DNA of 14,514 nt, taken from the IMG/VR virus record IMGVR_UViG_3300046516_000964. One strand, given 5' to 3'. This document shows positions 1 to 13,684 of the stretch, piece after piece. Made by a program: the position numbers and the translations under genes. The stretch's first letter is position 1. Each line of letters starts with the position of its first letter. A model generated the notes under the pieces. That model did no database searches and was not told the origin of the DNA. It saw only the letters and a program-made list of their open reading frames with translations. The DNA comes from a virus (lineage: Duplodnaviria > Heunggongvirae > Uroviricota > Caudoviricetes).

Positions 1-781
1 CAGGGAGGATGCCCTGGAAGAACCCGCCAGGACCACCGCCGCCGAAGAAGTTCCCGATCCCACGACGAGCATTGCCGCCGCCGCCGCTGAAAAACCGTCC
101 GATGTTCCTCAGGAATGACACTCCATACTCGGCTTCCCGCGTCGCACCGTAGCTTCGGTGGGCTTCCGTCTCACCAAGCCTTCGACTAAGGATCTGAGAA
201 CCAGTAAGTGGGCCCGGTGGGCTCCATCCTCTGAGAATCGCTTCGGCCTGCGTCATTGGTCCAAGTCTCGCCCCGCCCTGCGACTGGACTAGACGAGTCA
301 TGTAATCGCGGTAATCCTGCATCCCGCCGACACCACCCGATGCCGCAGCAAGCGGGATCGCGTTGCGTCCGAACAACCCACTAGATGAGCGCGTTTGCAC
401 ACGGAGAGATGCGAGTTGAGCTTCGATCTCGGCGTCGGTGAGTCTCTTCACCGCTTCGGTTTGCGCGTTGATCTCGGCGATGTTCTTCGCCGTTCTCGTC
501 GGGGAGACAGACAGATCATTCGCAGCCTTGTTCGCCTCCAGGAACTTCGTGCGAAGATCACCGACCTGGTTGCCGAGTTCCTTGAGTTTCCCAATGCTCT
601 TGTCCATCTGAGAAGCGTCAACCCCGAGCTTCTTCATCGTCTCTTGGAGCTCAATCGTGGTCTTCTCCAGGTCGCGCATCACCTTCTGAACTTCCTTGAG
701 CATTCGCTCAGCCGCAGCCATCTGCGACTGGAACGCAGAGATTTGAGCCTCAAGGCGAGTGGTGAGAACCGCGACTTCCAT
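1..781 (-). CDS. Tape measure protein, N-terminal 260 aa (runs off the left edge; absent from the ORF track)
   Basis: Manual translation from ATG 781 is open to base 1: MEVAVLTTRLEAQISAFQSQMAAAERMLKEVQKVMRDLEK... The N-terminus has the typical TMP 'L...L.A..S.F...M..A' pattern and is helical. It lies directly downstream of the chaperone genes. Confidence 0.88.
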   Translation of the reverse strand, partial: MEVAVLTTRLEAQISAFQSQMAAAERMLKEVQKVMRDLEKTTIELQETMKKLGVDASQMDKSIGKLKELGNQVGDLRTKFLEANKAANDLSVSPTRTAKNIAEINAQTEAVKRLTDAEIEAQLASLRVQTRSSSGLFGRNAIPLAAASGGVGGMQDYRDYMTRLVQSQGGARLGPMTQAEAILRGWSPPGPLTGSQILSRRLGETEAHRSYGATREAEYGVSFLRNIGRFFSGGGGNARRGIGNFFGGGGPGGFFQGILP

Positions 782-797
782 GCGTAACTAGTTACGC
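782..797. promoter_or_regulatory. Perfect 16-bp palindrome GCGTAACTAGTTACGC (dyad site 1)
   Basis: Exact palindrome. It contains the last codon and stop of the chaperone GT product (GCG TAA) and fills the space between an AGGAGG (802-797, minus) and the TMP ATG (781). Function is inferred. Confidence 0.6.
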
Positions 798-1462
798 CTC
801 CTGATTGTGTTCGGCGATGTCAGCGCGAGTCAGTGGCTTCAACGTGTTCGTGCCGCTGCTTTTCTTCTCCGAGGCTTCCATCGCGGCCTGCTCCTCTTCC
901 GGGCGGAGCACCCCCAGCTCAACGATCCACTCCTCCAGCTCGGAGGAACCCATGCGCTGAAGGAGCTCGCTCACAGTGCAACCGATCTTCTCAGCGATCA
1001 GGAAGTACCAGCGCCGTTCGGGGTGGTTTCGGAGTTTCCCTCCGCCGCTCCCGAGTACTGACCGAGAGACGACAGACGCTCGATCGTGTCGATGATCTCA
1101 GCGATCTTGCCGCCGCCGATCCGCATCACACGATCCATGTCACCCGGGCGGAACAGCGTCGAGCGACCGCCCGGAGGGGACTGAGGGTCCATCACGCCGG
1201 CCTGAATCAAGGTGCGCTCGTATCCCTTGCGGTCGAACTTCTTCGTATCGGCCATCATCCCTGTCGCCTGCTGGCCGATCAGATCCGCGCGTGTCTCAGC
1301 AGTGATCTCGGAGAGAAGCAGGGTGCCGAGACCCTCCACGTTCTTCGTCTCCTCCTTCAGTTTGTTCGCTGCGGAAAGCATCGCGTCACGGGTCAGGTAG
1401 ACAGGCCCGTTGTCCACGGGAATCTCCTGCTGCTTGACAGGTGCTTCAGTTGTAGGGCTCAA
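792..1462 (-). CDS. Tail assembly chaperone GT, -1 frameshift fusion (about 223 aa: 143 aa of G plus 80 aa of the -1 frame)
   Basis: The -1 frame after GGGAAAC reads LRNHPERRWYFLIAEKIGCTVSELLQRMGSSELEEWIVELGVLRP..., the usual 'LA..LG.TV.EL..R.SS.EL.EW' chaperone T segment. It is the same frame as track ORF 792..974. Confidence 0.85.
998..1462 (-). CDS. Tail assembly chaperone G (154 aa)
   Basis: TTG start with AAGGAG 6 nt upstream. Sits between tail tube genes and TMP and ends just after a slippery heptamer. Confidence 0.85.
   Translation of the reverse strand: MSPTTEAPVKQQEIPVDNGPVYLTRDAMLSAANKLKEETKNVEGLGTLLLSEITAETRADLIGQQATGMMADTKKFDRKGYERTLIQAGVMDPQSPPGGRSTLFRPGDMDRVMRIGGGKIAEIIDTIERLSSLGQYSGAAEGNSETTPNGAGTS
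1034..1040 (-). other. Programmed -1 ribosomal frameshift site G GGA AAC
   Basis: X XXY YYZ heptamer in the correct phase of ORF G (GAG GGA AAC). The -1 frame is open to the stop at 792-794. Equivalent to the lambda G/T site GGGAAAG. Confidence 0.85.
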
Positions 1463-1997
1463 AGGTCACTCCTTCATCGTCGAACATGATTTGAACTCCT
1501 GCGTTCACTTGGGTCATCTCACCGAAACCGACGTACGCCCCCTTCTGGAACGGGAGCAGCACGAACGCTTTCTTAAGCGAGGATGCGATGACACCGTCCA
1601 CGGTCGCGACCGTGTCCAACGTTTTCACAGACGCCCCCACCGGTGAGGTCATGGAAGGGGACGTGTTGACCTCAGTGTCGATCGTGATCCGCCACGAGCT
1701 CCCCCACCCGATCAGACTCGTCGGGTAACAGAGCCCGCTCGCACGAACCCAATGCTCCATCAGGGCTCGCGGGAACACGACACGACCGAGATGCGGGTAC
1801 ATCTCATCCGGGACGATCTCGTCCCATGACTCCGCATCGTCAGACACCTCGAACAGCACGTCACCCTCCCAGCAACCAAGACCAGGGGGCGAAGCCCAGC
1901 TCCAACCGTCCCCACAGTTGTAGAGCTGGACGTTCTGGAACGAGAACGCGTCCCCGACAGCGCACACGTTCCCTCCCTTGCCGGAAATCCTATTCAT
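1446..1997 (-). CDS. Tail-tube-like paralogue with inserted domain (183 aa; start moved to ATG 1997)
   Basis: MNRISGKGGNV matches ALAGKGGSV of the tail tube, and IGWGSSWRITID matches IANIHQWTMTVD after an ~80-aa insert. ATG 1997 overlaps the tail tube stop (TATGAATAG). Confidence 0.65.
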   Translation of the reverse strand: MNRISGKGGNVCAVGDAFSFQNVQLYNCGDGWSWASPPGLGCWEGDVLFEVSDDAESWDEIVPDEMYPHLGRVVFPRALMEHWVRASGLCYPTSLIGWGSSWRITIDTEVNTSPSMTSPVGASVKTLDTVATVDGVIASSLKKAFVLLPFQKGAYVGFGEMTQVNAGVQIMFDDEGVTFEPYN

Positions 1998-2400
1998 ACG
2001 GGTGCTGCAAGCTCCCCGTTCCGACATACGTAAAGTCGAGAGTGATCAGACCATCGACCGGGTCGGTGATCGCAAACTGCGTGATGTTCACCGTTCCCTC
2101 GTACTGCAACCGTGCTGGGGAACCCTGGAACACGCACACCACCGACAGGGAGTTCAGCAGCGCGTTGTGAAGCTGCTGCTGACCGGACGGGTCAAGATCC
2201 ACGTCCCAGTACCCGTTGATCGTACCGTTCCACCCACGGAGACCCGGGATGAAATGGCGCCATGAGTCACCGAGAACCGAGGCGTCGTAGTTGCCGGCGT
2301 CCACCGTCATCGTCCACTGATGGATGTTCGCGATCGGCACCGTCGGGGTGCCAGGGACGTACACGGATCCGCCTTTACCTGCTAGCGCAGTTTCAGGCAT
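1990..2400 (-). CDS. Major tail (tube) protein (136 aa)
   Basis: Siphoviral tube motifs: W-T-M-T-V-D, 'D.S.LGD.W..FI.GL.GW.GTI.G', 'Y.G...IT.......DG......Y.GTG.L'. RBS GAAAGGTGG. Expected position in the module. Confidence 0.88.
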   Translation of the reverse strand: MPETALAGKGGSVYVPGTPTVPIANIHQWTMTVDAGNYDASVLGDSWRHFIPGLRGWNGTINGYWDVDLDPSGQQQLHNALLNSLSVVCVFQGSPARLQYEGTVNITQFAITDPVDGLITLDFTYVGTGSLQHPYE

Positions 2401-2450
2401 TGCACACCACCTTTCAGAGAGGTCAAGATGGGGTGCTTATCGGACTCTAG

Positions 2451-2479
2451 TTGCACTAACCATGCGGAACGCGTAGTCT
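2451..2479 (+). promoter_or_regulatory. Putative sigma70/SigA promoter TTGCAC-N17-TAGTCT, probably giving a leaderless or near-leaderless mRNA
   Basis: -35-like hexamer at 2451-2456, 17-nt spacer, TANNNT -10 at 2474-2479, ATG 8 nt later (2488), and no Shine-Dalgarno sequence. Confidence 0.5.
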
Positions 2480-2487
2480 TTAGACCC

Positions 2488-2763
2488 ATGGACAGGAGAA
2501 AGTTCCTCAAGATCGTTGGTGTTGGTACGGCCGGCTTGTTCGCCGGGGTCGAGCTCCCGAAAGCAGAAGCGGTTGAGCCGGAGCTCGTCGTCTCCAAACC
2601 ATTGACGAACATCACCGTCGAGTACATGAAGAAATCCTCTTGGAGGATCCCGTTCGGGCCGCTGCCCCCGCCCAACCCGGAAGTCGGGGACAGGTGGTGG
2701 AGGCTAGGAGAGTACGGTCACTACGAAGTGACCACGTTCAACGGACATCATTGGAAACGCTGA
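2488..2763 (+). CDS. Small twin-arginine (Tat) signal protein (91 aa; start moved to ATG 2488)
   Basis: MDRRKFLKIVGVGTAGLFAGVELPKAEA has an RRxFLK motif, a hydrophobic region and an AxA cleavage site. The ~63-aa mature part contains a P-P-x-P-x-x-G-D-x-W...F-N-G-x-x-W motif. Confidence 0.7.
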   Translation: MDRRKFLKIVGVGTAGLFAGVELPKAEAVEPELVVSKPLTNITVEYMKKSSWRIPFGPLPPPNPEVGDRWWRLGEYGHYEVTTFNGHHWKR

Positions 2764-2945
2764 TGCCGTACAAGCACCCCACCGACCGGCAAGCCTGGCA
2801 TCGCCGTCACTACCAGGATCACAAGGAAGCGATCAAACAGGCCGCGGCGGAATGGTATGAGGATCACAAGGACGACCCGGCGCTCCTGGATCGGAAGCGG
2901 ATCTACATGGTGGTGTGGCGGCGTAGGAAGAAGAACGGGGCGTAA
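2763..2945 (+). CDS. 60-aa basic helical protein, similar to the N-terminal helical arm of phage HNH/endonuclease VII proteins
   Basis: TGATG-coupled to the Tat gene. MPYKHPTDRQAWHRRHYQDHKEAIKQAAAEWYEDHK follows the 'MPYKDP..R..Y.R.YY..NKE' pattern. No nuclease domain follows. Confidence 0.6.
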   Translation: MPYKHPTDRQAWHRRHYQDHKEAIKQAAAEWYEDHKDDPALLDRKRIYMVVWRRRKKNGA

Positions 2946-2955
2946 CTAGTTACGC
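2940..2955. promoter_or_regulatory. Perfect 16-bp palindrome GCGTAACTAGTTACGC (dyad site 2)
   Basis: Identical to 782-797. It lies at the convergent junction and provides GCG TAA on both strands. Confidence 0.6.
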
Positions 2956-3072
2956 TATGCCGGCTTCTTGAGCAACCGCTTCGGCCTCAGGTTCGGGCGC
3001 GAACTCAAGTTCCGCTTCGGCGCCGCCAGACCTCGATGGCGTGATCGGCCTCCGTGGTTCGCGCACCCCCAA
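2950..3072 (-). CDS. Small acidic protein with GVREPRRP motif (40 aa from TTG 3072; alternative basic ORF 2955..3089 in another frame)
   Basis: Reads MGVREPRRPITPSRSGGAEAELEFAPEPEAEAVAQEAGIA*. Codons have G-rich first positions, GAGGA lies ~10 nt upstream, and the stop falls inside dyad site 2. The start is uncertain because the frame is open up to 3114. Confidence 0.42.
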   Translation of the reverse strand: MGVREPRRPITPSRSGGAEAELEFAPEPEAEAVAQEAGIA

Positions 3073-3088
3073 AGTGGGATCTTCCTCA

Positions 3089-3559
3089 TCAGGCTCTCTG
3101 CGTATTCTCCCACATTACACGGAAGTTCTGAGACCACTGATGCCGCTCCTTGTGGTCCCTGCCCAGGTACATCGGTGACTGCATCGCCTCCACCAAGTGG
3201 AACAGCGCGCCACCGACGTTCAGAACTTGCTCCACCACTCCTTGCAACGCGCCGAACACGCCCTCCGCCAGGGTGTTGCCGGCGTTGTACCCGGTCATGC
3301 TCGACCGAGTGAAGATCTGTACGACAGGCTGATCCAGAAGGGATTCGTTCACAGGAGGCACGAACGTTGTCGCATGAGACCCGGGGCCCGTCAGCCACGT
3401 GACCGGACGGATCCCACCACGCTCCAGCACCGCGACCGCAACATCGGGCTGATCGAGCAGGTGGCTGCTGAAACAGTTGATCGTGCCGGCGCCGTTGAAG
3501 TTCAAGCCCAACCCCTGCCCTTGCAGGTAGATGCAGAACTCGTCGCCAAGGGAGCTCAT
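3089..3559 (-). CDS. Tail terminator (Minor_capsid_3-like) (156 aa)
   Basis: 'PD.AV.V...GG..P', 'QP.VQI..R', 'QSP..LGRD...R...S.NF.V' motifs. Lies between the gp10-like gene and the tail tube. Confidence 0.85.
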   Translation of the reverse strand: MSSLGDEFCIYLQGQGLGLNFNGAGTINCFSSHLLDQPDVAVAVLERGGIRPVTWLTGPGSHATTFVPPVNESLLDQPVVQIFTRSSMTGYNAGNTLAEGVFGALQGVVEQVLNVGGALFHLVEAMQSPMYLGRDHKERHQWSQNFRVMWENTQRA

Positions 3560-4218
3560 GGGCGCCTAGAGAACTGGCCTGGGTTCAACGGGTTCCCGCC
3601 ACGGAACGATGTCCCGCCGCCGATCGAAGGAACACCGGTCGGGAGACCAACCAGGTCGGTGAGAGTGACGGAACGGTCAGGCCCGCCGACCACAGCAGTT
3701 GTGCGTTGCGCCCCGATGCGCATAAACGAAGCAACACCCGGGCCGAACTCAGCCGAATGCTCCAACAGCGGATCAAGCAAGAAATGGTCCTTCGTTGGTG
3801 GCATGTGTGTGGCGTCGCGAATCTCGTGCACCGGTACCGCGTACTGCGAGGCGCGCCGACCATCCACCGGGGACGGCTCATCCCCGTACCCGTACCCCAT
3901 CGTGATCCGAATCTTCCTTCCCGACCGCCTAGGGGGCTCAATGTCATGGGACTCCTTCAGTGTCCCGGACACCTCAGGTGTCTCCGCGAGAGACGAAACC
4001 ATCACGCGGTTCGCGAACACCTCCATCCCCTGGACCGCACCGGCGATCATGCCCTGACCCACGTCGCTGTTCGACCGGCTCTTCACCCTCGAACCAGCAG
4101 ACTTCTTGAAAGCCTCCGTGGCCATGTCAGCCATCTTCAACGCGGCCTCAAAGCTTGCTGTGTCGAGCTCCACCGTGGCAGTAAGGAGCTCGTCATAGGA
4201 GGAGTCACCAAAGATCAC
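3556..4218 (-). CDS. HK97 gp10-like neck/tail completion protein with N- and C-terminal extensions (220 aa)
   Basis: 'P..SGTL..S' and 'YA..VHE.....H.......FL..PL' motifs. GTGA and ATGA overlaps with neighbours. Confidence 0.75.
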   Translation of the reverse strand: MIFGDSSYDELLTATVELDTASFEAALKMADMATEAFKKSAGSRVKSRSNSDVGQGMIAGAVQGMEVFANRVMVSSLAETPEVSGTLKESHDIEPPRRSGRKIRITMGYGYGDEPSPVDGRRASQYAVPVHEIRDATHMPPTKDHFLLDPLLEHSAEFGPGVASFMRIGAQRTTAVVGGPDRSVTLTDLVGLPTGVPSIGGGTSFRGGNPLNPGQFSRRP

Positions 4219-4619
4219 AGGGTCACCCTAACGACCCACGCGTTCCGATTGTCGAACGGGGGCCCGTAGAACGTCGCGATCCACACCGCCTGCAACGACT
4301 GGGGCTCTGGGTCGAACAACCCCGCCACGTTGATCCCGATGCTCTGCGGTGTGAACCGATCGTACAACCGGAAGCCCTTCACGTCAGCGTCGTCACCGTC
4401 GAAATAGAGGTCGAGGACCGGCTCAACCACCGTTCCGTTCGGGAGCCTGATCGCCTCAACACCACCCGTCACCATCCCGTGCTCCTCGAGAAAACATTTC
4501 TTCACGACTGGAGGACGGTACGAAGGTTCCGCGTGGCCGTCCCACCCGTCGAACCCCTCCCACACCACAGGAATGTTCATCATCTGCTTGATCTCCGGAG
4601 GACAGGAGGGGATCGGCAT
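4215..4619 (-). CDS. Head-to-tail stopper (head closure protein) (134 aa)
   Basis: 'D.H.EPSY..P.....C......R..NG..V......Y.......DR.T' pattern. Lies directly after the adaptor. Confidence 0.7.
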   Translation of the reverse strand: MPIPSCPPEIKQMMNIPVVWEGFDGWDGHAEPSYRPPVVKKCFLEEHGMVTGGVEAIRLPNGTVVEPVLDLYFDGDDADVKGFRLYDRFTPQSIGINVAGLFDPEPQSLQAVWIATFYGPPFDNRNAWVVRVTL

Positions 4620-5107
4620 CAGAACTCGATAACCTCCTCGTCGACCCCCTCGTCACCGCCACCGGTAGCAGGGATCAGGCTGTCCGTGGTGTACCCACCG
4701 ACGCGAGGATTTTCCATCATGGTTTTCGTGAACACCGGCTGGATCAGATCGGTGTTCGTCGCGAAGTTGATCTGATCGGTGAGGTTCGCGCCACCCACCC
4801 ACGGAGGAGTCGTACCCAGTGATTTGGAGCGCAGCATGCGAGCCATCTGGAACCACTGGTCCGCCATCTTTGAGTACGTGATCTGCATCGAGCGACCCAA
4901 ATGCACATCCGCCTTGCGGAGCACCCTGCGGCCGATCATCTCGGCGCAACGGGCCGCGGCAGCCCACATGTTCCGCTCCGCCGCGAGCGCGTAAGCGATC
5001 TCCTCGTCCTGGAGCTGCTGATCGTTTGGATCAGTGTCCTGCAGCTCCGCGCGCACCTGCATCACCGGGTCGGTGTCGAGGGCCTCCGGGTTGTAGTTCC
5101 AGCCCAC
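4619..5107 (-). CDS. Head-to-tail adaptor (162 aa)
   Basis: 'VR..L.DTD....L.DEEI.Y.L......AAA..A..I...' and 'G...I.YS..A.Q....A..LR' are typical adaptor motifs. First gene of the neck block. Confidence 0.8.
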   Translation of the reverse strand: MGWNYNPEALDTDPVMQVRAELQDTDPNDQQLQDEEIAYALAAERNMWAAAARCAEMIGRRVLRKADVHLGRSMQITYSKMADQWFQMARMLRSKSLGTTPPWVGGANLTDQINFATNTDLIQPVFTKTMMENPRVGGYTTDSLIPATGGGDEGVDEEVIEF

Positions 5108-5421
5108 TAGGTGATCTCCAACAGGCCGGCCTTAATCACAGGGACCTCGGGGTTGTCGGTGACCTTCACATACACATCGTAGAACCCATTGATGAGGATC
5201 GCTGACGTTCCCGGCCCGACCAGAGCTTGCGCGTAATAGATCCCGTTCTCGGTTAGCCACTGGCCGGCAACGAACACCGTCGGATCATCACCAGGAGCAG
5301 GAAACGAGAGAGCAACATTGTCACCGGTCGGGTCACCGCCAGTGATCGACTCAGCGACAGGCACGGTGACGTACTGCTTCGATACGGAGGAGACTTGGAT
5401 GTCAGCGAGCGGCCCGGTCAC
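5107..5421 (-). CDS. Small beta-sandwich virion protein (BppU-N/Ig-like, 104 aa)
   Basis: 'S.QYV.VPV...DPT', 'A..LVGP......G.YDV.V...D.PE..V...G.L.IT' pattern, recalled from actinobacterial prophage neck regions. Coupled on both sides. Confidence 0.6.
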   Translation of the reverse strand: MTGPLADIQVSSVSKQYVTVPVAESITGGDPTGDNVALSFPAPGDDPTVFVAGQWLTENGIYYAQALVGPGTSAILINGFYDVYVKVTDNPEVPVIKAGLLEIT

Positions 5422-5654
5422 AAGTCACCTGTCTTCCAATCGTCCGTTGGACTATCGGTATCCCAGCCGGTCCCCGGCTCACGCGTCTGATCGTTCTCCG
5501 TTGGTGCATCGGGAGTCCAGTCCGACCGAGCTCGCATCGTGTTCCACAGGAGCCCGGGAGCACCAACGAGCCACTTGATGCTCTTTTTGATCGTGCCAAT
5601 GACCGTCGGCGGTGAAGCGAACGGAGACTGTCCGAAGTAGCTACCTCCGAACAT
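5418..5654 (-). CDS. Hypothetical virion-associated protein with MFGxxxFGxxPF N-terminus (78 aa)
   Basis: Coupled ORF. Aromatic/Gly N-terminal motif and Trp/Asp-rich C-terminus. Confidence 0.6.
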   Translation of the reverse strand: MFGGSYFGQSPFASPPTVIGTIKKSIKWLVGAPGLLWNTMRARSDWTPDAPTENDQTREPGTGWDTDSPTDDWKTGDL

Positions 5655-6294
5655 TGCCGAACCTGCCGACCGCGCAATCGTTCGCGCCTTCGAACTGCCA
5701 GTACTCCACCTTGATGCCGCGCTGGTCGAACGGGACCTCGGACAGATAGTTCCTTCCTGATGGGCCGGAGAGGTAGACGTCCCCGCCGAGCTCCTCCACC
5801 ATCATCGCGATCCGATCGCTGATCGGAAGCAGCTCGTACTCTTCGTCACCCTGAGCCCACACGGCGTGACCGCCGTCCAGGTGTGACTGAAAATGCCAGG
5901 AAGTTTGAGAATCAAAGCGACGCTGCTCGCCAGTAGGATCGACCAGAAGACGAATCAACGCAAGGTTGAGACCGACCAGGAGACGGTAGGGACGCATGAT
6001 CTCCTCGCATAGATCCTCCACCAATCCACCTTTGTAGTGTTGGCGGAGCGCCTTCGCGTGACTTTCACGCCACCCACCGTGTTCGCTGATTCGCACCCGG
6101 TTGATCGGACCCATGTCGGTTCTGCGCTCCACCGGTACGGTCAGCCAGGAACCATCCGGCATACGGTTGCGGTTCGTCCAACCACCGTGGCTGTACTGCA
6201 CCTCGTCCAACCAAATCACTGCGTTCGCAGCCTCAACTTTCTCGATCACCGAGAGGCCGGGGAGGTAGTTCGCTTGGTGGGCGGTAACGATCAT
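5641..6294 (-). CDS. wbqC: WbqC-family protein (putative sugar N-glycyl transferase; 217 aa, start moved to ATG 6294)
   Basis: MIVTAHQANYLP...LDEVQY....W.NRN, 'WLTVPV', and 'YLSGPSGRNYL...F....I.V' are WbqC signatures. ATGA overlap with the methyltransferase stop. Confidence 0.88.
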   Translation of the reverse strand: MIVTAHQANYLPGLSVIEKVEAANAVIWLDEVQYSHGGWTNRNRMPDGSWLTVPVERRTDMGPINRVRISEHGGWRESHAKALRQHYKGGLVEDLCEEIMRPYRLLVGLNLALIRLLVDPTGEQRRFDSQTSWHFQSHLDGGHAVWAQGDEEYELLPISDRIAMMVEELGGDVYLSGPSGRNYLSEVPFDQRGIKVEYWQFEGANDCAVGRFGNVRR

Positions 6295-6848
6295 CGCCAC
6301 ATCACCAGTAGCAGATCGTTGTGTCGGTGCTTCTCAACGCGCCAACGGTCAGCGTGATTGCGAGCGAAATCGCAGAGGTCGTACTCGTCGTAGCGCAAAC
6401 ACGACTCATCCTCGCCGCAGTACAGAGATGCGACAAGAACGCGATCGGTGATCTCCCACAGAGACATCAAAGTCCGCCAGGTTTCGTAAGTCGATCCTGG
6501 GAGGTTGAACGTACCGATGCACACAACAGCGTCGAATCGGCGCCAGGACAGCGCAGATGTGAACTCATGGTCTGGGTGCTCATCCCTGGCGCGCTGAACC
6601 ATCGACTGCGACCAGTCATAGCCGAAATACTCATGAGAGGGGATGTGCTCGCTGAATGCTCCCGTCCCACAACCGAAGTCAAGAAGAGAAGTCGAGAGGG
6701 ATCCTTTGAGCGCATCGAGAGCAGCCTCAAACCTGTCCTTCTGCCCTTGCGCGGACCACATCACCGCACCGAGGGAGGTGGGCTCGTCAGCGCGAGCGCT
6801 CCAAGCCTCCGGGGTGTTCAGGCTGCGCGCTTCTGCATTTCCAGACAC
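6291..6848 (-). CDS. Class I SAM-dependent methyltransferase (185 aa)
   Basis: Motif I LLDFGCGTG, then 'Y.GYDWS..MV..AR..HP', 'FDAVVCIGTF', and an N-terminal 'WS..GQ..RF' of the kind seen in glycan-locus methyltransferases. Start is uncertain (GTG 6848). Confidence 0.88.
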   Translation of the reverse strand: MSGNAEARSLNTPEAWSARADEPTSLGAVMWSAQGQKDRFEAALDALKGSLSTSLLDFGCGTGAFSEHIPSHEYFGYDWSQSMVQRARDEHPDHEFTSALSWRRFDAVVCIGTFNLPGSTYETWRTLMSLWEITDRVLVASLYCGEDESCLRYDEYDLCDFARNHADRWRVEKHRHNDLLLVMWR

Positions 6849-8365
6849 CTGTTGATCATCCTCCGTTTTCGCTCCGTCTGGCCTGGCTGCAAGTACAGCC
6901 TATCTGGGGCATCAGCGAACTCCCTGACCGCGTACCCGAAATCAGCTCGGACCCAGTTCACCAGTGTCCCGAAAATGAAGTCCGCCTCGACGAGAACATC
7001 GTCGTCCCACGGGTGCTGCTCGAAATACTTGGAGAAGATCTCCTGCGGCAGGTGTGCGTCGCAGAGAGACCCCGCGCCGAACAGCGCGGTGTGCTCGTAC
7101 CCCGCTCCCCTTATCCAAGCATCGTCCATGTTCGCGATCGCCACCCCCGGTTGGTAGTTGTCGAGCAGAGCCTTGTGGTTCGCGAAGATCACGTCGTCGT
7201 CCTGCCAGTACACCACCGAGTGGCGTGCCTGCGGGATCGCAGCGTAACGACCGAATATCTTGTAGTCGTAGTCGCTCTTCGAGTTGTCCCAGACGATCAC
7301 ATCCGAATAAGGGAGCGTTTCTAGACAAGGGTTGAGATCGACGTCTCCACGAGTGACGATGATCGCGGTGATCTCCTTCGCTGTGATCGGAACCCTACGG
7401 CGACGCTTGTGCTTGCAGCGGATATCCGGCAACGGAGGCATCAGTTCGCCAGTTGGAAGCTGCACGATCTCCGCTGGCTTTCTGTAGGCGCCCGGTTCAA
7501 CGAACAGAACCTCGCCGGTGGGAAACGGGACCTTGTCGGCTACGCTGTTCGAGCACCCTGCCAAGGCGCGGAGAGCTTCCGCGCGGTTCTGCTTCATCTC
7601 CGCGGCGGCGATCAGAAGCTTCGCACCCTCGTAGTAGTTCACGTGCTCACACAGGAGCATCCCGGCCTGGTAGAGGGACTGGTAGACCTCTTCGGCCCAC
7701 CCTCCGAGCGACGCACGGATCTTGTACGCAGCGATCGCCTTCTCTACTTGGTCCAGGTCTCGGTAGGACTGCGCGAGGTAGAACCAGGAGCGCGCATCAG
7801 CCGGATTCTTCCCAACCTCGTCGGCGAGCTCAACCGCGTCCTCCTCGATCTTGCCAGGGCGATGCCCCCCGCCACCGTGGTCAATCAGCCGAACCTGGTT
7901 GAGCTCTATACCGTTACTGGGCCCGTCGTCGCAGGCCAGATAACAGTGGGCTCTACCGGCGTAGAAAAAACTCCGCTTGGTAGAAGTGAGAAGTGGGAGT
8001 GGGTAGCGAAGCCCGCGATCGAAAATCGGGAGCATGTACTCGTCCTGGTCCAGCTCGGGGATCTCACCCTCAATCACGAGTTCCATGTCCGCGTCGAGCA
8101 TCAGGCAGTAGTCCGCACCCGTCTCGCGCACCTTCTTGAGCAGGATTGTGCGGTTGATGTAGTGACGCTTCCACTCCTCCTGGAACTCCGTGAGCGGGAT
8201 TCTGTCTCGTAACGTGTTACGCACGATCTCCATCGTGTTGTCGGTGCACCCGGTGTCGATGAAGAGAGCTCGATCAACACCAGGGAACTTGAGCGCGCTC
8301 TCGATGCAGCGCTCGATATGTGACTCCGCGTCCTTGACGTTGAGGGCTAGGCAGACGGAGGTCAC
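6818..8365 (-). CDS. Bifunctional glycosyltransferase: GT2 + TPR + second GT-A domain (515 aa)
   Basis: N-terminal GT2 (CL...VK...IERC, DTG.TD.T, LMLDAD at aa 91-93). TPR helices (RSWFYLAQSYRD, GGWAEEVYQSLY). C-terminal GT-A domain from about aa 332 with VIVWDNS and YWQDDD (aa 388-391). Confidence 0.9.
   Translation of the reverse strand: MTSVCLALNVKDAESHIERCIESALKFPGVDRALFIDTGCTDNTMEIVRNTLRDRIPLTEFQEEWKRHYINRTILLKKVRETGADYCLMLDADMELVIEGEIPELDQDEYMLPIFDRGLRYPLPLLTSTKRSFFYAGRAHCYLACDDGPSNGIELNQVRLIDHGGGGHRPGKIEEDAVELADEVGKNPADARSWFYLAQSYRDLDQVEKAIAAYKIRASLGGWAEEVYQSLYQAGMLLCEHVNYYEGAKLLIAAAEMKQNRAEALRALAGCSNSVADKVPFPTGEVLFVEPGAYRKPAEIVQLPTGELMPPLPDIRCKHKRRRRVPITAKEITAIIVTRGDVDLNPCLETLPYSDVIVWDNSKSDYDYKIFGRYAAIPQARHSVVYWQDDDVIFANHKALLDNYQPGVAIANMDDAWIRGAGYEHTALFGAGSLCDAHLPQEIFSKYFEQHPWDDDVLVEADFIFGTLVNWVRADFGYAVREFADAPDRLYLQPGQTERKRRMINRCLEMQKRAA
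8208..8221. promoter_or_regulatory. Dyad site 3 CGTAAC-GT-GTTACG inside the glycosyltransferase gene
   Basis: Both 6-bp arms are identical to sites 1 and 2. Encoded as CGT AAC ACG TTA CGA (RNTLR), which includes an AT-rich TTA Leu codon. Confidence 0.55.
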
Positions 8366-8553
8366 CTGTGATCTACCTTTGCCATGATCTTTCGTTCGTG
8401 TGGCAAGGGAATAGAACTCGTCGCACCAGTTCTATTCGCCGACGAGCCGATGCAGAGCTCATGAATATGCCACTCGGGGCCGAACTGTGGTCCAGCAATG
8501 CTGAGCCAGTGATCGTTGAGGGGCCCACCGCAGATCGCGCATTTATCAGTCAC
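8362..8553 (-). CDS. Cys/His microprotein, probable Zn finger (63 aa; start moved to GTG 8553)
   Basis: MTDKCAICGG...WHIHELC gives CxxC...HxxC. GTGA overlaps at both ends. Confidence 0.6.
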   Translation of the reverse strand: MTDKCAICGGPLNDHWLSIAGPQFGPEWHIHELCIGSSANRTGATSSIPLPHERKIMAKVDHR

Positions 8554-8786
8554 TGCACCAACACCATGACTTCCATTGGGTGCTCGTCCCAACTCGATGG
8601 GCCGGTGCAGCACGGCTCAAGCCCCGCGATGTCGGAACGGTAGGTGTTCCGGCAGACGGGGCAGCGGTAGGTGAGCACGCCCTTCTTCACCGGCTGCAAC
8701 ATCAGCGTCTCCAGATCCTCCGGGTCGCTGGTGTCGGGCAGATTAACCCAATCAGGGACCAGGACCCCGGTCGGTAGGCGACGCAT
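8550..8786 (-). CDS. Cys-rich microprotein, probable Zn ribbon (78 aa)
   Basis: YRCPVCRNTY...PCCTG...H gives CxxC plus CC/H. In-strand ORF filling the gap. No clear RBS. Confidence 0.6.
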   Translation of the reverse strand: MRRLPTGVLVPDWVNLPDTSDPEDLETLMLQPVKKGVLTYRCPVCRNTYRSDIAGLEPCCTGPSSWDEHPMEVMVLVQ

Positions 8787-8801
8787 CGGTTGGTGAGTCT
8801 A

Positions 8802-9146
8802 CTACGTGCTGATGACGCCGGAAGCAAGCCCGTTCACGGTGGCGCTGTTCGCATACCCGCACAGGAACGAGTTCACGGGAACCGTGTACCAGCCGTTCAC
8901 GAAATACGGGGACGACGCTGTCAGAGGGTACGAGTCGACGAAGAGCGCTGACGCGATCGCTGTCGCACCCGTGACTCCCATCTGTACGTTCACCTGACCG
9001 GTCGCTCCGGCCTGACCCGTGAACGCCATCGAACGGCACGCCGACTCGGCAGAACCGGTGTTCTGATACTGCCAGGTCGCGATGTTCGCCGCAGCGTTCC
9101 CCATCGCCTTCGTCGTAATCAGAGTTTTCACGGTGTATGTGGCCAT
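8802..9146 (-). CDS. Small beta-rich virion accessory/adaptor protein (114 aa)
   Basis: Strong RBS (GAAAGGA). 'N.G.......I....G.....A.....DSY.L.A......NG...V.....L.GYA....VN...SG' resembles the small jelly-roll proteins found next to phage fibres. Confidence 0.7.
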   Translation of the reverse strand: MATYTVKTLITTKAMGNAAANIATWQYQNTGSAESACRSMAFTGQAGATGQVNVQMGVTGATAIASALFVDSYPLTASSPYFVNGWYTVPVNSFLCGYANSATVNGLASGVIST

Positions 9147-9188
9147 GTATTCCTTTCTATCGGATTGGACTAGGAAAAAGTGAGAGCA

Positions 9189-9806
9189 TCAAAGGTTCCC
9201 ACCCCCGAAAGCGGAGACCCTGCCGACCGTTTGGGGAATCGTGAGCCCGATCTGGCTGGCCACAACGCTGTTGCCATCAGATGTGGTCAGAACCTTCACC
9301 CCGTTCTTGTAGCCAATCAACGAGGTTCCGATCGCACGCGCCCCAAACTGGTCCCCCGGGCTCAGAGAGATCCCCGTTGCTGTTGCCAGAACACTCGGGG
9401 AGCTAGCCGCAAAAGACGTGAACGCGAACTCTCCGCTGTTGGTGGAATCCCACGTGAACCGGTACCCGCGCTGCAAGCCCCCCGTGAGAGCGAGTCTGAG
9501 CCAAACCCCAATGATGATCCCTCCGGTGGGCGCAACGGAAACAGTCATCCACGCTTCCTGGTCGCGATTGAAAGTCGTGCTGATCGCCTGCGAGTTGAGG
9601 CTTGCTGCCGAACCGGCAGCCAGGTTAGTGGAAACTTTCAGCGCCGTATTGACCCCTGACTGCCCGTTCCACGTTGCCGACCATGTGGCCCCACTCGATG
9701 AGGTCGCAAGCGGGTTCTCGTCCGCGCGAGTGAAGTTGTCGATCTGGGCAGTGAACGGGAAGGCCGCAGGCACGAATCTTATTGGGGAGCGAATACCGAG
9801 CTGCAT
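9189..9806 (-). CDS. Lectin/ConA-like beta-sandwich virion protein (205 aa; start moved to ATG 9806)
   Basis: TAATG coupling at 9804-9808. 'DNFTRAD...W', 'GY...W', 'GD......IGT.L..YKNG.......D.....S..GL' pattern. The upstream 107 codons of the track ORF overlap another gene. Confidence 0.7.
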   Translation of the reverse strand: MQLGIRSPIRFVPAAFPFTAQIDNFTRADENPLATSSSGATWSATWNGQSGVNTALKVSTNLAAGSAASLNSQAISTTFNRDQEAWMTVSVAPTGGIIIGVWLRLALTGGLQRGYRFTWDSTNSGEFAFTSFAASSPSVLATATGISLSPGDQFGARAIGTSLIGYKNGVKVLTTSDGNSVVASQIGLTIPQTVGRVSAFGGGNL

Positions 9807-10507
9807 TAGAAAAACCCGGGATCGTTGATGTTGATCGTGGAGTTGCGCGGAGTGCGCGCTGCTCCTTTGAAGGTGGCGATTGCGCCGGAATACACGACCG
9901 CCGCCCCGGTAGAGAAAGTCGGTGTGGCGCTCTGCGTCCCCGTCGCGGACACGATTTGGTACTCCGCAAACGACTGCCTGGTCGCGGTGCCGAACCCGGC
10001 TGTCCCCGTCGTGAATAACGAGTAGGCGGCATCTTTCGTCCATGTTTTCCCAGTAGTGGCAATACAGACACCAGCAGTCACCAGCTCCGATGCCTGACTC
10101 GTTGTCCCGGACGGGCCAATCGCACATGCCCCACCAGCCGTAGAGGTGCCCGGAGAGTTTGCTGAGGCGTCAAACCACCCGCTCGTCAGGAGGCCGGAGA
10201 ACTCCTCGATAATGATTCCTCGCAACACCCCCGAGGTTGCACCAAAAGTGATTGTGTCGCTAGTCGCAATCCCATTCGGAGCGTAGATAGAACCGATCGC
10301 GAACAGAGTCCCAGTTCCCACTATGACGTTCGTCTGCGCGGTCGCACCAGACGCGCTTGTGCTCAACGTCGCAGTTGTAGCGGAGTTAGCACCCCAGAAA
10401 CAGATCGCGTGGTTGCCCGCAGCGACCGCCGTTGCGGGATTGATCGCGAGGCTCGCCCCGGACGGGGCTTGGTTCACGTAGTTCTCATGCACATAGACGA
10501 TCGCCAT
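9806..10507 (-). CDS. Ala/Thr/Ser-rich beta-sandwich virion protein (233 aa)
   Basis: Start abuts the fibre gene stop. 'EFSG.......D', 'T.QASELV.AG', 'EYQIVSATGTQSAT' pattern of putative fibre head/decoration domains. Confidence 0.7.
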   Translation of the reverse strand: MAIVYVHENYVNQAPSGASLAINPATAVAAGNHAICFWGANSATTATLSTSASGATAQTNVIVGTGTLFAIGSIYAPNGIATSDTITFGATSGVLRGIIIEEFSGLLTSGWFDASANSPGTSTAGGACAIGPSGTTSQASELVTAGVCIATTGKTWTKDAAYSLFTTGTAGFGTATRQSFAEYQIVSATGTQSATPTFSTGAAVVYSGAIATFKGAARTPRNSTININDPGFF

Positions 10508-13500
10508 TTAGACCCTCGTGTAGGCGATCATCACGCCGATCAGCCCGGCAGAGACCGTGAGGGTGTCCGCCGTGGCGGCAGCACGACGGTAGACACGGAA
10601 CAACGCGAGATTCGACGCAGCGCCCGTCACACCACCGGTTGTGATCGCTGAGGTCGCAGAGGTTGTCATCTCGAACGCTCCTGTCGCTGCGGACTGATAG
10701 TTCTGAGTGACCTCCTGCCCTGTGCCCCACGTCTGGTCGAGAGTGCGGCCGCTGCTGTACTGGTTCCACTGAGCACCCCATGTCACTGCTCCCGTTGAAG
10801 CCGTCGCAGCGACCCCGATCGTCCACACGAACGTCGCGGTGACGGTACCGCCGTCGTAGTCAGACGGGAGCATCAGATTCCCTTGCGCGTAACTCGTTAC
10901 GGCATCAACAAACCCAAGCGTGTAGTAGTCCTGAAGGTTCGTGGTGGTCTCGTTCAACGTCACCGCAGCAGCTCCTGATGTGTTCGAACCCCACATTCCT
11001 GCTCCGGACAGCCAGATCTGCCCCGCTGGCTTCGACCCGGTCGGGCCGGTGGCACCTGTCGCGCCGGTAGGTCCAGTCGCGCCCGTTGATCCCTTCTGAC
11101 CGTCCAGACCATCAAGACCGTCCTGACCAGACGGGCCAGTGAACCCTGTGGCGCCAGTAGCTCCGGTAGCACCAGTCTGTCCGCGCTGACCCGTCGAGCC
11201 GGGAGGGCCCTCCAAACCATCGAGGCCATCCGACCCGGCGGAACCAGTCGCTCCCGTTGCACCAGTGGCTCCCGTAGGACCAGTCGCGCCGGTTGTTCCG
11301 ACACCAGCGCCAGCGAGATCCCCGAACAAATCCCATGTATCCGTCCCCGTCTTAACAAGCGTCGCGCCGGAGTACCGAGCACGGAACAACAAAGACGGGG
11401 TCGCGTTTACAGTGACCCCCCCAGCCCCAGCAACCGTGACCTGGCCTGTGTTGATCTGCGCTAGATCAATGCGAGTCCCGATGGGGAACGCAACCACCGA
11501 GTTCGGCGGGACAGTGAGAGCGATCGGAGACGAGTTCGACAGCGTGACGAGCTCGCCAGCGTCGCCCAGAACAAGCGTGTATGTCGTGTTGGTCTGCGCG
11601 TTGATCGTTTGGGCGGCGTCATAGGACGGCCCCGTTGAGCCCTTGTTCCCGTCAAGGCCATCGAGTCCATCAGAGCCAGTTGATCCCGTCACACCTGTAG
11701 CACCAGTGACTCCCGTAGGGCCAGTAACACCAGAGACACCAGTTGACCCCGTAGCGCCGGTCGCGCCAGTCGATCCTGTCACGCCCGTAACACCCGCAGA
11801 TCCCGTCGCACCCACGTTCCCGGCGCGGCTAAAGCTGACGAGGAGTGCATCGCCGTCCCACCACGGCGCCGTCACGGTCTGCGACACGAATGTCGCTGTC
11901 AGCGCCGCGTAGGTGCCGGAACTCGTGTCGACGGCAGTGATGTTCCAGGTCGCGGATTGCGTCTGGTTCCTCGTGGTCGAGATCACGATGGTGCCCTTCA
12001 CCGTGTTCGTGGAACCGCCGATCGCAGCGAGGAGCGCCGAGTAGTCAGCGCCATCAGAGCCGGTGTTCGAGAGCCGGATCGTGGTGATGTTGTTGACCTG
12101 CGTGTCATTGCCGCGCATGAACCCGGAGCCGGGGTCACCGGCCGTCGTAAGGGCTGAGTAGGTGTACGGGAACGTGAGCGCCCCAGCCGCGCCCGTGACG
12201 CCCTTGTTACCAGCGAGTTCGAGCATCGCGAGCACCGAGTCGCTCGTGTTCAGTGTCCCGTTCGTGACGCCGTTCTGGACATCGAGGTCGACGACGCTCG
12301 CGGGCGCGATCGTCCAGGTGTCGTTGATGAAGGTGTTTAGGGATGATCCGTTGTTAGCGGAGCCGCCGTGAAGCACGGCCCGTTTCCGTGCGGTGTCGTA
12401 GACCATCACGCCGCGGTAGCGCGGGTACGGGAGGTTCAGGCTCGTGAGTTGCGTCCAGGTGGTCCCGTCCCACTTCCACATCACGTTCGTGAGCGTCCCG
12501 AAGTAAAGGTCTCCGCCAAACATGACGACGTAGCCGCGGTCGGCGTCATACGCGATCACTGCCCCGTCGACGTTCGTTGGTTTCGTCGCGGGGGACTGCA
12601 ACGTCCAGTCGGTGCCCGACCACAGGTAGGTGGAGCAGGTGTCGATCGTTCCGAACACTCCGGGGGAGACGTGGACGAGTTTGCTGTTGGTGCCGTCGTA
12701 GACGAGCGCGGGCCACGCCGCCGCTGCCGGGGTTGTCGACGGCGTCAGCTGCGTCCATGTCGAGCCGTCCCACTTCCAGGTCTGTGTGTTGTTGCCGCCC
12801 GACTGCCCCCCGAACCAGAGCGCGTACCCGTGGTTCGTGTCCCAAGCGGCGCGGCCGTAGTAGGCGGTGCGCGTCCCGACTGGTGTGAGTTGCGTCCAGT
12901 CGGAGCCATCCCACTTCCATGTCTCGTTGTCGGCAGATCCGCTCGCGATCCGACCGCCGGAGAGGATCACAACGCTGTTGACGTGGTCGTAGAACATCAC
13001 CGACCCGTACCGCGCCGACGGCGCGTGCGTCGGCGACTTCAGCGTCCAGGTAGCACCATCCCACACCCACGTCTCGGCGCTGTAGGTACCGCCAATGACG
13101 AATCCGCCGAACAGCACGGCCTGGTTGTTCGTCTCGTCGTAGGTCATCGCTGTGTCGAAGCGAGCCGACGGCGCAGTCGGCGGCTGCTCCTGCCCCCACG
13201 ACCCGGGCGGCGCGATCGACGTGACGTCCCACGACTTCATCGTCGACTGAGTCGCAAAGTTCGCAACACGAAGCGTTCCCTTAATCGTGGAAGTGCCGCC
13301 TCCGAGCGAGTTGAGGAGCGCCGACCAGTCGGTGCTGTTCGCGTCTGTCTCGTGGATCGAGACGCGCGTGATCGCAGACGGCTTGTTGAACGTCAACCCC
13401 CCCGAACTCGGGGTTAGCGTCGAGGGTGCGGTGATGGTGTAGGGGATCGTTAGCGGCCCGCCGTAGTCACCAGTGGATCCAGGACGCCCAGGCCCTCCGT

Positions 13501-13684
13501 CCAGACCATCCAAACCGTCAGACCCGGCGGACCCCGTTGGCCCGGACGGCCCGGTCTGACCGGTCGCTCCGGTGACACCCGTAGCACCAGTTGTTCCAGT
13601 GGCACCGGCGCCGGTCGGGCCAGTCTGGCCGCGAAGACCACTCTCCTTAATCGCCCCCGTATCGTCATAGACAGACCAGCCCAT
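10508..13684 (-). CDS. Collagen-like fibre protein with duplicated beta domain, six-blade Kelch-like beta-propeller, INAQT domain and C-terminal beta-sandwich (1058 aa)
   Basis: Three GXY tracts (20, 22 and 30 triplets), six TWxWDG-type blades (aa ~161-460), an INAQTxTTYTLVLxDAG module (aa ~689-791), and a C-terminal 'F.D....YAQ...LP.DY.GGT.T..F.W' domain. Confidence 0.9.
10888..10901. promoter_or_regulatory. Dyad site 4 CGTAAC-TC-GTTACG inside the fibre gene
   Basis: 14 of 16 bases match the palindrome (GCGTAACTCGTTACGG, 10887-10902). Encoded as GCC GTA ACG AGT TAC GCG (AVTSYA). Confidence 0.55.
11030..11299 (-). repeat. Collagen GXY tract 3 (30 triplets, 18 GXT)
   Basis: aa 796-885 of the fibre, counted by hand. 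Confidence 0.9.
11624..11821 (-). repeat. Collagen GXY tract 2 (22 triplets, 14 GXT)
   Basis: aa 622-687 of the fibre. Confidence 0.9.
12303..13218 (-). repeat. Kelch-like beta-propeller repeats bounded by the 10-bp direct repeat GGCGCGATCG (12303-12312 and 13209-13218)
   Basis: Six ~50-aa units (PSAR..M.YD....V.FGG......TW.WDG..W). The two repeats are 906 bp apart, so they are in frame, and both encode I-A-P. Confidence 0.8.
13454..13639 (-). repeat. Collagen GXY tract 1 (20 triplets with one GA interruption, 10 GXT)
   Basis: aa 16-77 of the fibre. Confidence 0.9.

Follow-up and report, generated by a model that had tools for sequence, protein, structure and literature searches.

The stoperators of Cluster A phages such as L5 and Bxb1 are asymmetric, 13 bp long, and oriented with transcription; the monomeric immunity repressor of these temperate phages binds them. 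NarL and other helix-turn-helix (HTH) proteins of the GerE/LuxR family bind as dimers to inverted heptamers in a 7-2-7 arrangement, as in the structure of the NarL C-terminal domain on DNA. The closest described counterpart of the element analyzed here is a 17-bp dyad of the Cluster O mycobacteriophages (Corndog and relatives), TGTTCGG-NNN-CCGAACA, reported in 2015 (Cresawn et al. 2015, PMC4351075). It occurs in about 30 copies per 70-78 kb genome and is absent from other mycobacteriophages and from the host genomes (M. smegmatis mc2 155, M. tuberculosis) checked by the authors, who suggested dimeric regulators, found no clear role, and also mention the Cluster A stoperators (PMC4351075). Dispersed palindromes are used by ParB-family proteins as well: KorB silences at a distance on RK2 from OB, with the clamp-locking small HTH protein KorA (PMC11790492), and the plasmid prophage N15 has the dispersed centromere sites IR1-4 (PMC7205306). 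Here, we describe the palindrome CGTAACNNGTTACG (CGTAAC-NN-GTTACG) in a 14,514-nucleotide stretch (the window) of a tailed phage, IMG/VR record IMGVR_UViG_3300046516_000964, and in the remainder of its genome and its relatives, where the copies appear, on balance, to be dispersed binding sites for a phage-encoded protein.

The window corresponds to positions 6317-20830, read on the reverse strand, of this 39,025-bp viral record, which has 61% G+C and is estimated to be half complete; identical contigs overlapping the record end add 5.8 kb and give an extended sequence of 44,775 bp (44.8 kb). An exact search located CGTAACNNGTTACG four times in the window, at 783-796, 2941-2954, 8208-8221, and 10888-10901, as a first-pass annotation had read by eye, and the flanking letters of all four copies were also as first written. 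The sites are as follows:

Site 1, 782..797 (genome 20034-20049), GCGTAAC-TA-GTTACGC: intergenic, between the AGGAGG and the ATG of the tape measure gene.
Site 2, 2940..2955 (genome 17876-17891), GCGTAAC-TA-GTTACGC: intergenic, at the convergent junction of the minus-strand head-tail connector genes and a small plus-strand insert.
Site 3, 8207..8222 (genome 12609-12624), tCGTAAC-GT-GTTACGc: intragenic, in the glycosyltransferase gene, minus strand.
Site 4, 10887..10902 (genome 9929-9944), GCGTAAC-TC-GTTACGg: intragenic, close to the C-terminal end of the collagen-like fiber gene, minus strand.

Against these four copies, 200 dinucleotide-preserving shuffles of the window gave a mean of 0.00, and a search of the window at up to two mismatches returned zero copies beyond the exact four. 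The dyad had first been described as a feature of the late operon, a placement that did not hold: the sites occur genome-wide, about one per 3 kb, and are denser among the leftward early genes. A lack of further enrichment elsewhere in the genome had been named as a ground for refuting the idea, but the enrichment extends well beyond the window, with nine full 14-mers and twelve GTAAC-NN-GTTAC sites in the 39-kb record and 14 GTAAC-NN-GTTAC sites in the 44.8-kb extended sequence. The sole one-mismatch copy in the 39-kb record, GTAACTGGGTAC at genome 3777-3788 (outside the window), lies within a 105-residue gene and aligns with an exact site, GTAACCGGTTAC, at positions 6247-6258 of the relative G004; it may be either a decayed or a newly gained site. 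When the phage was pooled with the relatives that use the same motif (henceforth V1, GCGTAAC-NN-GTTACGC), 146 kb of DNA held 43 exact and 5 one-mismatch copies. The consensus of the 43 sites is (G/C)CGTAAC-WW-GTTACG(C/G): the GTAAC arms are present in 100%, C occupies half-site position -6 in 93% and G occupies position -7 in 65%, and the center is W-W in 34 sites even though the DNA is ~59-63% G+C. In the phage of the window itself, six centers are TA, two are GC and the remainder are mixed, without orientation bias.

Judged by these sequence features, the palindrome is an independent member of the same descriptive class as the dispersed dyads of Cluster O. In both, 7-bp inverted arms that are invariant within the genome flank a short, variable, A/T-rich center; copies sit in short intergenic gaps, mostly of leftward early genes, and inside genes (respectively 8 and 6 sites in the 44.8 kb examined here), mostly off promoters; and sites are lost between relatives by single-base changes. 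Both groups of phages also encode ParB-like and other DNA-binding proteins, have glycosyltransferase and methyltransferase genes in the structural region, and carry a leftward insert in the late operon. The sequences differ, however, as do the spacers (2 bp here, 3 bp in Cluster O). We recounted 34 copies of the 17-bp dyad in Corndog and found 0 copies of either motif in the other's phage; tblastn revealed only an HNH-endonuclease-like open reading frame (ORF) in common, and BLASTP detected no similarity between the ParB-like protein of our phage (see below) and Corndog gp90. Since no motif and only the HNH-like ORF are shared, the two systems are analogous, not homologous. The resemblance to stoperators lies in the many near-identical sites running through operons, mostly in short intergenic gaps, in a sequence that co-varies with lineage, and in the elongation block that has been proposed. 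Unlike stoperators, the arms here are perfectly symmetric, and only the central dinucleotide is oriented, in a single relative (L054/L068). Annotation of ~64 kb from this phage and its relative G003, which covers part of the genome only, revealed no integrase or CI-like repressor.

Selection on the DNA itself is the best-supported explanation for the sequence and position of the sites. Coding density is 93%, and 8 of the 14 sites are not wholly within a gene, compared with 7.5% of positions (binomial P 2e-6). The six intragenic sites are themselves in excess: shuffling synonymous codons within genes gave an expectation of 0.087 (maximum 2 in 1000 trials), an excess of ~70-fold. The first-pass annotation had pointed to rare codons in the intragenic copies, and codon usage of the phage bears this out, for they are written with codons of 1-6% usage (TTA, 1% of Leu; GTA, 6% of Val; AGT, 6% of Ser; CGA, 6% of Arg). 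Site 3 reads CGT AAC ACG TTA CGA (RNTLR), with Leu encoded by the 1% codon TTA, and site 4 reads GTA ACG AGT TAC (VTSY), in which GTA and AGT are rare.

Comparison with relatives shows that intergenic copies are retained where the surrounding DNA is not. Four IMG/VR records of 70-75% DNA identity hold 2-5 sites each, and at this divergence exact sites persist after the capsid gene, between the chaperone and tape measure genes, between the lysis and early genes, and between early genes, with flanks that barely align; a site within the methylase gene is retained in three lineages with three different centers. The TAA of site 1 is the stop codon of an upstream tail-chaperone extension ORF; its 16-mer is unchanged in G001 and the site is present in L068 too, with diverged flanks. 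Likewise, the TAA of site 2 is the stop codon of a 60-residue plus-strand gene, and we count this site as intergenic because the ORF at 17433-17876 shows a non-coding pattern of G+C at third codon positions (GC3). G001 has a site in the same connector/insert junction despite different neighboring genes. Whether sites 3 and 4 are conserved had been posed at the outset, and the outcome is mixed: site 4 is kept in G004 but missing in G003 (TCC ACG ACG TAT there), and site 3 is absent at the orthologous codons in G001. In its place, the glycosyltransferase gene of G001 contains GTAACATATTAC, a copy with one mismatch that lies 24 nt further downstream (G001/L024 about 2010-2025; window 8209-8220), a difference that looks like site turnover.

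The motif itself diversifies in a symmetric manner. We reached contigs sharing the gene order described below through homologues of the proteins encoded in a conserved gene cluster. V1 is used by L054/L068 (L054:1-20384 and L068:1-21296; one 76-kb Logan contig), with 12 sites in 29.9 kb, and by L057, with 3 sites in 2.8 kb. Three other lineages have variants: V2, GCGTTAC-AT-GTAACGC, with 2 copies in 3.9 kb (L058); V3, ATTAAC-AT-GTTAAT, with at least 8 core copies in ~24 kb (L055/L056), mostly just 5' of ribosome-binding sites; and V4, GTGAC-AT-GTCAC, which L062 carries as GCGTGAC-AT-GTCAC at the cluster junction that holds the conserved site. Among capsid relatives of 72-78% identity (L016-L023), two have one GTGAC-AT-GTCAC after the capsid gene, and no V1 site was present in the 4-15 kb read of each. 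Thus, copies within one genome are all alike and changes between lineages hit both arms symmetrically, which points to a trans-acting reader of the sequence and not to mere structure. Along with the invariant arms, the free and A/T-rich center, the kept intergenic copies, the codon-shuffle excess, and the site inside the regulator gene cluster described next, these symmetric arm changes make a symmetric site under selection at the DNA level and bound by a dimeric protein, as the first-pass annotation had proposed, the best-supported reading.

In every lineage read, one site lies inside a cluster of genes for candidate DNA-binding proteins, between a GerE-type gene and a winged-helix/ParB-like gene pair. 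The order is a ribbon-helix-helix (RHH)-like protein (63 residues), a LuxR/GerE HTH protein (66 residues), the site, a MarR/PadR-like winged-helix protein (120 residues), and a ParB-like protein (306 residues). The cluster site, at genome 36375, overlaps the stop codon of the 66-residue GerE-type gene, and the winged-helix and ParB-like genes overlap each other. The 66-residue ORF matches PF00196 over residues 3-53 (E 1.1e-13). Its gene, at L006:17359-17559 (genome 36384-36584) on the minus strand, has a TTG start and is represented in the metagenome gene call by a 36-residue fragment; the ORF holds the whole HTH, so public protein sets contain a truncated product. A word-based protein search with the GerE protein matched only this truncated call, and a search of viral contigs with it found no relative. 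The 63-residue protein is predicted to be a ribbon-helix-helix protein from its sequence pattern, with no family match in family searches. For the 120-residue protein, a fold predicted with a pLDDT (predicted local distance difference test) of 77 had winged-helix regulators, mostly MarR/PadR, as all of its 50 best PDB matches; a profile search of PDB sequences gave only weak matches (E 0.1-0.5), also to winged-helix regulators. The same profile search found nothing for the ParB-like protein, which matches phrog_1033 ('ParB-like partition protein') over residues 24-291 and whose model, in Foldseek, aligned with ParB-CDP, Noc-NBS, ParB-parS, and KorB, DNA-binding domains included, over 185-260 alignment columns (E 1e-4 to 1e-3). 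Of the four proteins encoded in the cluster, this one is conserved best.

Two of these proteins can be compared with known systems. Like operators of the GerE/NarL type, the palindrome consists of two tail-to-tail 7-bp arms with a 2-bp gap, often TA, and a stand-alone GerE HTH is encoded immediately upstream of the conserved site. In contrast to NarL, the heptamer bears no relation to TACYYMT, a receiver domain is missing from the phage protein, and its predicted recognition helix varies among phages sharing one motif. The likeness to KorB-OB, Noc-NBS, parS, and N15 is that 13-16-bp palindromes are dispersed over the replicon, inside genes and far from promoters, that a ParB-fold protein is encoded beside one site with a gene for a small DNA-binding protein coupled to it, and that such systems achieve long-range silencing without promoter overlap. 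The phage protein differs in that VNGQHRSKAA, a DGQHR-type variant, replaces the GERRxRA CTP-binding box, and no ParA-like gene was found in the annotated regions. The motif is also not similar to parS, NBS, or the OB/OA sequences quoted in PMC11790492. A parS-like, genome-organizing role had been offered early on as an alternative; the ParB-fold protein encoded beside the conserved site keeps it plausible.

From the gene neighborhood, the binder is most likely a product of the conserved cluster. Predicted DNA-reading residues were compared with motif variants across five or six lineages, and their co-variation picked out no single binder; a complex prediction for the MarR-like and ParB-like proteins scored 0.13 against a mark of 0.32, which counts neither for nor against a partnership. 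By rough estimate, we tentatively place the ParB-like protein first and the GerE-type protein next as a possible reader; the winged-helix protein seems an unlikely one, and the RHH-like protein or some other protein less likely still. A ParB-like alignment search of metagenome and viral contigs returned two short contigs and two distant loci only. In a separate set of contigs (L063:2871-2893, also L064 and L065), a 58%-identical GerE homologue is directly followed by a different 23-bp palindrome, GCCGTGTCTAA-A-TTAGACACGGC.

Our preferred interpretation, which we judge to be probable though by no means secure, is that the palindromes are dispersed duplex-DNA binding sites for a phage-encoded symmetric dimer, serving as roadblocks or silencers or as loading sites in the manner of KorB or Noc. 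Each subunit would read one (G/C)CGTAAC arm, and the central 2 bp would not be read directly but would be preferred as A/T, as where DNA is bent or the minor groove narrowed. Such a protein would act genome-wide and not at single promoters, because most sites lie in tiny gaps between co-transcribed genes and some lie in genes by way of rare codons. It could block or slow elongating RNA polymerase, stoperator-like, or it could load and spread like the ParB-family proteins KorB and Noc, silencing at a distance. Its specificity would have co-evolved with the sites, akin to the stoperator-repressor pairs that define Cluster A immunity groups. Of the operator, roadblock, or organizer system first proposed, the DNA-binding sites are likely, and the roadblock or organizer role would be one possible effect. 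The motif, the selection on it, its conservation and symmetric diversification, and the genes beside it are observed; the binding, the binder, and its effect are inferred. A more specific form, which we regard as rather improbable, makes the palindromes loading or anchoring sites of the ParB-fold protein, possibly with the translationally coupled MarR/PadR-like protein as partner, as KorB with KorA; the pair would silence or organize the whole chromosome, and V1-V4 would define mutually blind groups.

Several observations sit uneasily with binding by a symmetric dimer. Most sites are not near promoters, and a promoter scan of the window yielded no promoter-like site; the only SigA-like promoter found, a strong one outside the window (cTAGACA-N17-GGTATACT at genome 34270-34345 on the minus strand; L006 about 15250-15320), is ~110 nt upstream of site J, which is embedded in a longer G+C-rich inverted repeat. 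Two sites are at convergent gene ends. Intergenic sites lie regularly 2-26 nt 5' of Shine-Dalgarno (SD) sequences, and one lies between SD and ATG. In L054/L068, the sense strand of the local operon reads GTAAC-AA-GTTAC at 11 of 12 sites, in rightward late and leftward early genes alike, a bias that counts against the interpretation because a symmetric dimer on duplex DNA cannot sense orientation; it may stem from the spread of a site-plus-SD cassette. As for the candidate readers, the recognition helices predicted for the GerE and winged-helix proteins vary among phages sharing V1, the V4 lineage L062 has no called RHH gene upstream of its GerE gene, where there is a Zn-finger-like gene instead, and distant ParB-like homologues, including those at the two distant loci, occur in phages without dispersed dyads.

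Some of the same observations would be natural for an element that works as RNA, an explanation that we consider unlikely and in which the transcribed palindrome forms a small hairpin by ribosome-binding sites, which either serves as the target of a phage nuclease or RNA-binding protein or acts in cis on translation initiation, coupling, or mRNA stability. The regular placement 5' of SD sequences, often with the upstream stop codon enclosed as the left-arm TAA, is alike in V1 and V3 relatives; the site between AGGAGG and ATG at the tape measure start, kept in three lineages, occupies a 16-nt spacing that a hairpin would shorten; the AA of L054/L068 lies on the sense strand in 11 of 12 sites; and the arm changes between lineages preserve base pairing. 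The hairpin is nevertheless weak (16-mer, -6.1 kcal/mol; a 14-mer, -2.6 kcal/mol) and is not the preferred fold in context, and structure alone would tolerate G-U or compensatory variants, of which there are zero among the 43 V1 copies. Nor does a stem require the invariant C and G of the C-NN-G loop. Six selected copies deep inside genes and two at convergent ends, past the last gene, are likewise out of place for such an element, and an Rfam search of the window gave no family match. An intrinsic terminator or other structured RNA was rejected, given the absence of a T (U) tract, the weak stem, a terminator scan that misses the sites, and the Rfam result.

There is a slim chance that the reader is a transcription factor or nucleoid protein of the actinobacterial host, exploited or tolerated by the phage. 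Host regulators of the LuxR and MarR types bind similar dyads, and the phage-encoded binders are so far candidates. Yet the exact 16-mer has just 11 single, unclustered matches in 185,579 prokaryote species (one genome each), and this near-absence argues against a common host site. Close phages from similar soils use different symmetric variants, which fits co-evolution with a phage-borne reader better. We give similarly little credence to the idea that the palindromes are linked to recombination or spread, as hot spots or as targets carried along in a site-plus-SD cassette and marking the junctions of modules, with little regulatory role. Sites do lie at module borders (capsid-fibers, connectors-antisense insert, chaperone-tape measure, lysis-early genes), non-homologous DNA adjoins conserved ones, identical 'gcagagag' SD leaders follow some copies, and deletions between repeats have been described in Cluster O (PMC4351075). 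But homologous recombination needs more than 16 bp, and the parts read showed no dedicated site-specific recombinase. A sequence reader is also required by the exact retention of sites in relatives of 70-75% identity, by the selection of intragenic copies written in rare codons, and by the symmetric change of both arms. Least probable of all, in our estimate, are targets of DNA modification or self-marking, for instance by the phage N6/N4 methylase or a DndB/DpdB-like ParB-fold protein. The 476-residue N6_N4 methylase gene of the phage itself holds a conserved site, and the NGQHR motif of the ParB-fold protein is like that of DndB/DpdB; modification targets, however, are usually 4-8 bp and neither over-represented nor positionally conserved, the variable center rules out a CTAG-type target, and no modification-pathway genes were found beside the cluster. 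Roles in restriction or methylation, in packaging, and in nicking were also considered and rejected, since none accounts at once for the over-representation of the sites, their conserved positions, and their symmetric diversification.

The phage resembles siphoviruses and comes from soil or the rhizosphere: all public runs in which it occurs are DNA runs from these two sources, and no RNA run is listed among them. In a megablast search, the window had no match among 50,697 phage records. Its best capsid relatives among phage records are only ~40% identical (Arthrobacter phages Ottawa and Kharcho, and Roseobacter RDJL phages), which leaves no cultured relative to work with. Read from right to left, the window encodes collagen-like fibers, glycosyltransferase and methyltransferase genes, head-tail connectors, the small antisense insert, the major tail protein, chaperones, and the tape measure; no tRNA genes were found in it. 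Outside the window follow minor tail and lysis genes and then a long leftward early block that includes an Rpf-like transglycosylase, DUF6197, RusA, the N6/N4 methylase, and a PD-(D/E)XK nuclease. The genes next to or around the four sites are these:

2..781, minus strand: tape measure gene, 5' part (1215 residues in the full record; phrog_305, E 1.3e-13), with the start codon 1 nt away from site 1.
792..974, minus strand: tail assembly chaperone extension ORF, 60 residues, ending at the TAA within site 1.
998-1462, minus strand: tail assembly chaperone (phrog_344), neighboring the extension ORF.
2428-2763, plus strand: Tat-signal protein of the antisense insert, 111 residues (NCBIfam TAT_signal_seq match, 2428-2760).
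2763..2945, plus strand: basic protein of the antisense insert, 60 residues, with its stop codon TAA in site 2; no family match in family searches.
3089..3559, minus strand: head-tail connector (phrog_2595; GC3 0.79), the last late gene before the site 2 junction.
6818..8365, minus strand: glycosyltransferase, 515 residues (phrog_13126 beta-1,4-glycosyltransferase, E 1.1e-10), holding site 3.
10508..13684, minus strand: collagen-like tail fiber, 1058 residues (several tail fiber/collagen-like PHROGs, best E 5e-34), holding site 4.

The two genes of the antisense insert (window 2428-2945, plus strand) lie between the connector and major tail genes and are joined by an ATGA overlap. At roughly the corresponding position, after the tail terminator gene and upstream of a leftward gene pair and the chaperones, the late structural operon of the V1 relative L068 contains a gene (L068:602-1606, plus strand) for a 334-residue protein with Sigma70 region 4 and GerE domains. 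In G003 (L026:5840-17085 and 17507-19852), a run of glycosyltransferase and methyltransferase genes lies between the terminase and portal genes, and a 781-residue fusion of NUDIX, histidine phosphatase, and prohead protease is also encoded.

The present analysis contributes the variants of the motif, symmetric in both arms, that sister lineages use; the site that is always found within a four-gene cluster for candidate DNA-binding proteins, including a predicted ParB-fold protein; the evidence from codon shuffling and site turnover for selection inside genes; and the orientation bias in one lineage. Four natural site variants, four candidate proteins, and orthologous sets for each variant offer a direct way to identify the reader, and could also show whether phages time their genes by a distributed roadblock or by ParB-like silencing. 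Should the ParB-fold protein prove to load at these palindromes, the genome-wide palindromes of Cluster O and many uncultured phages, which are unexplained, would gain a mechanism.

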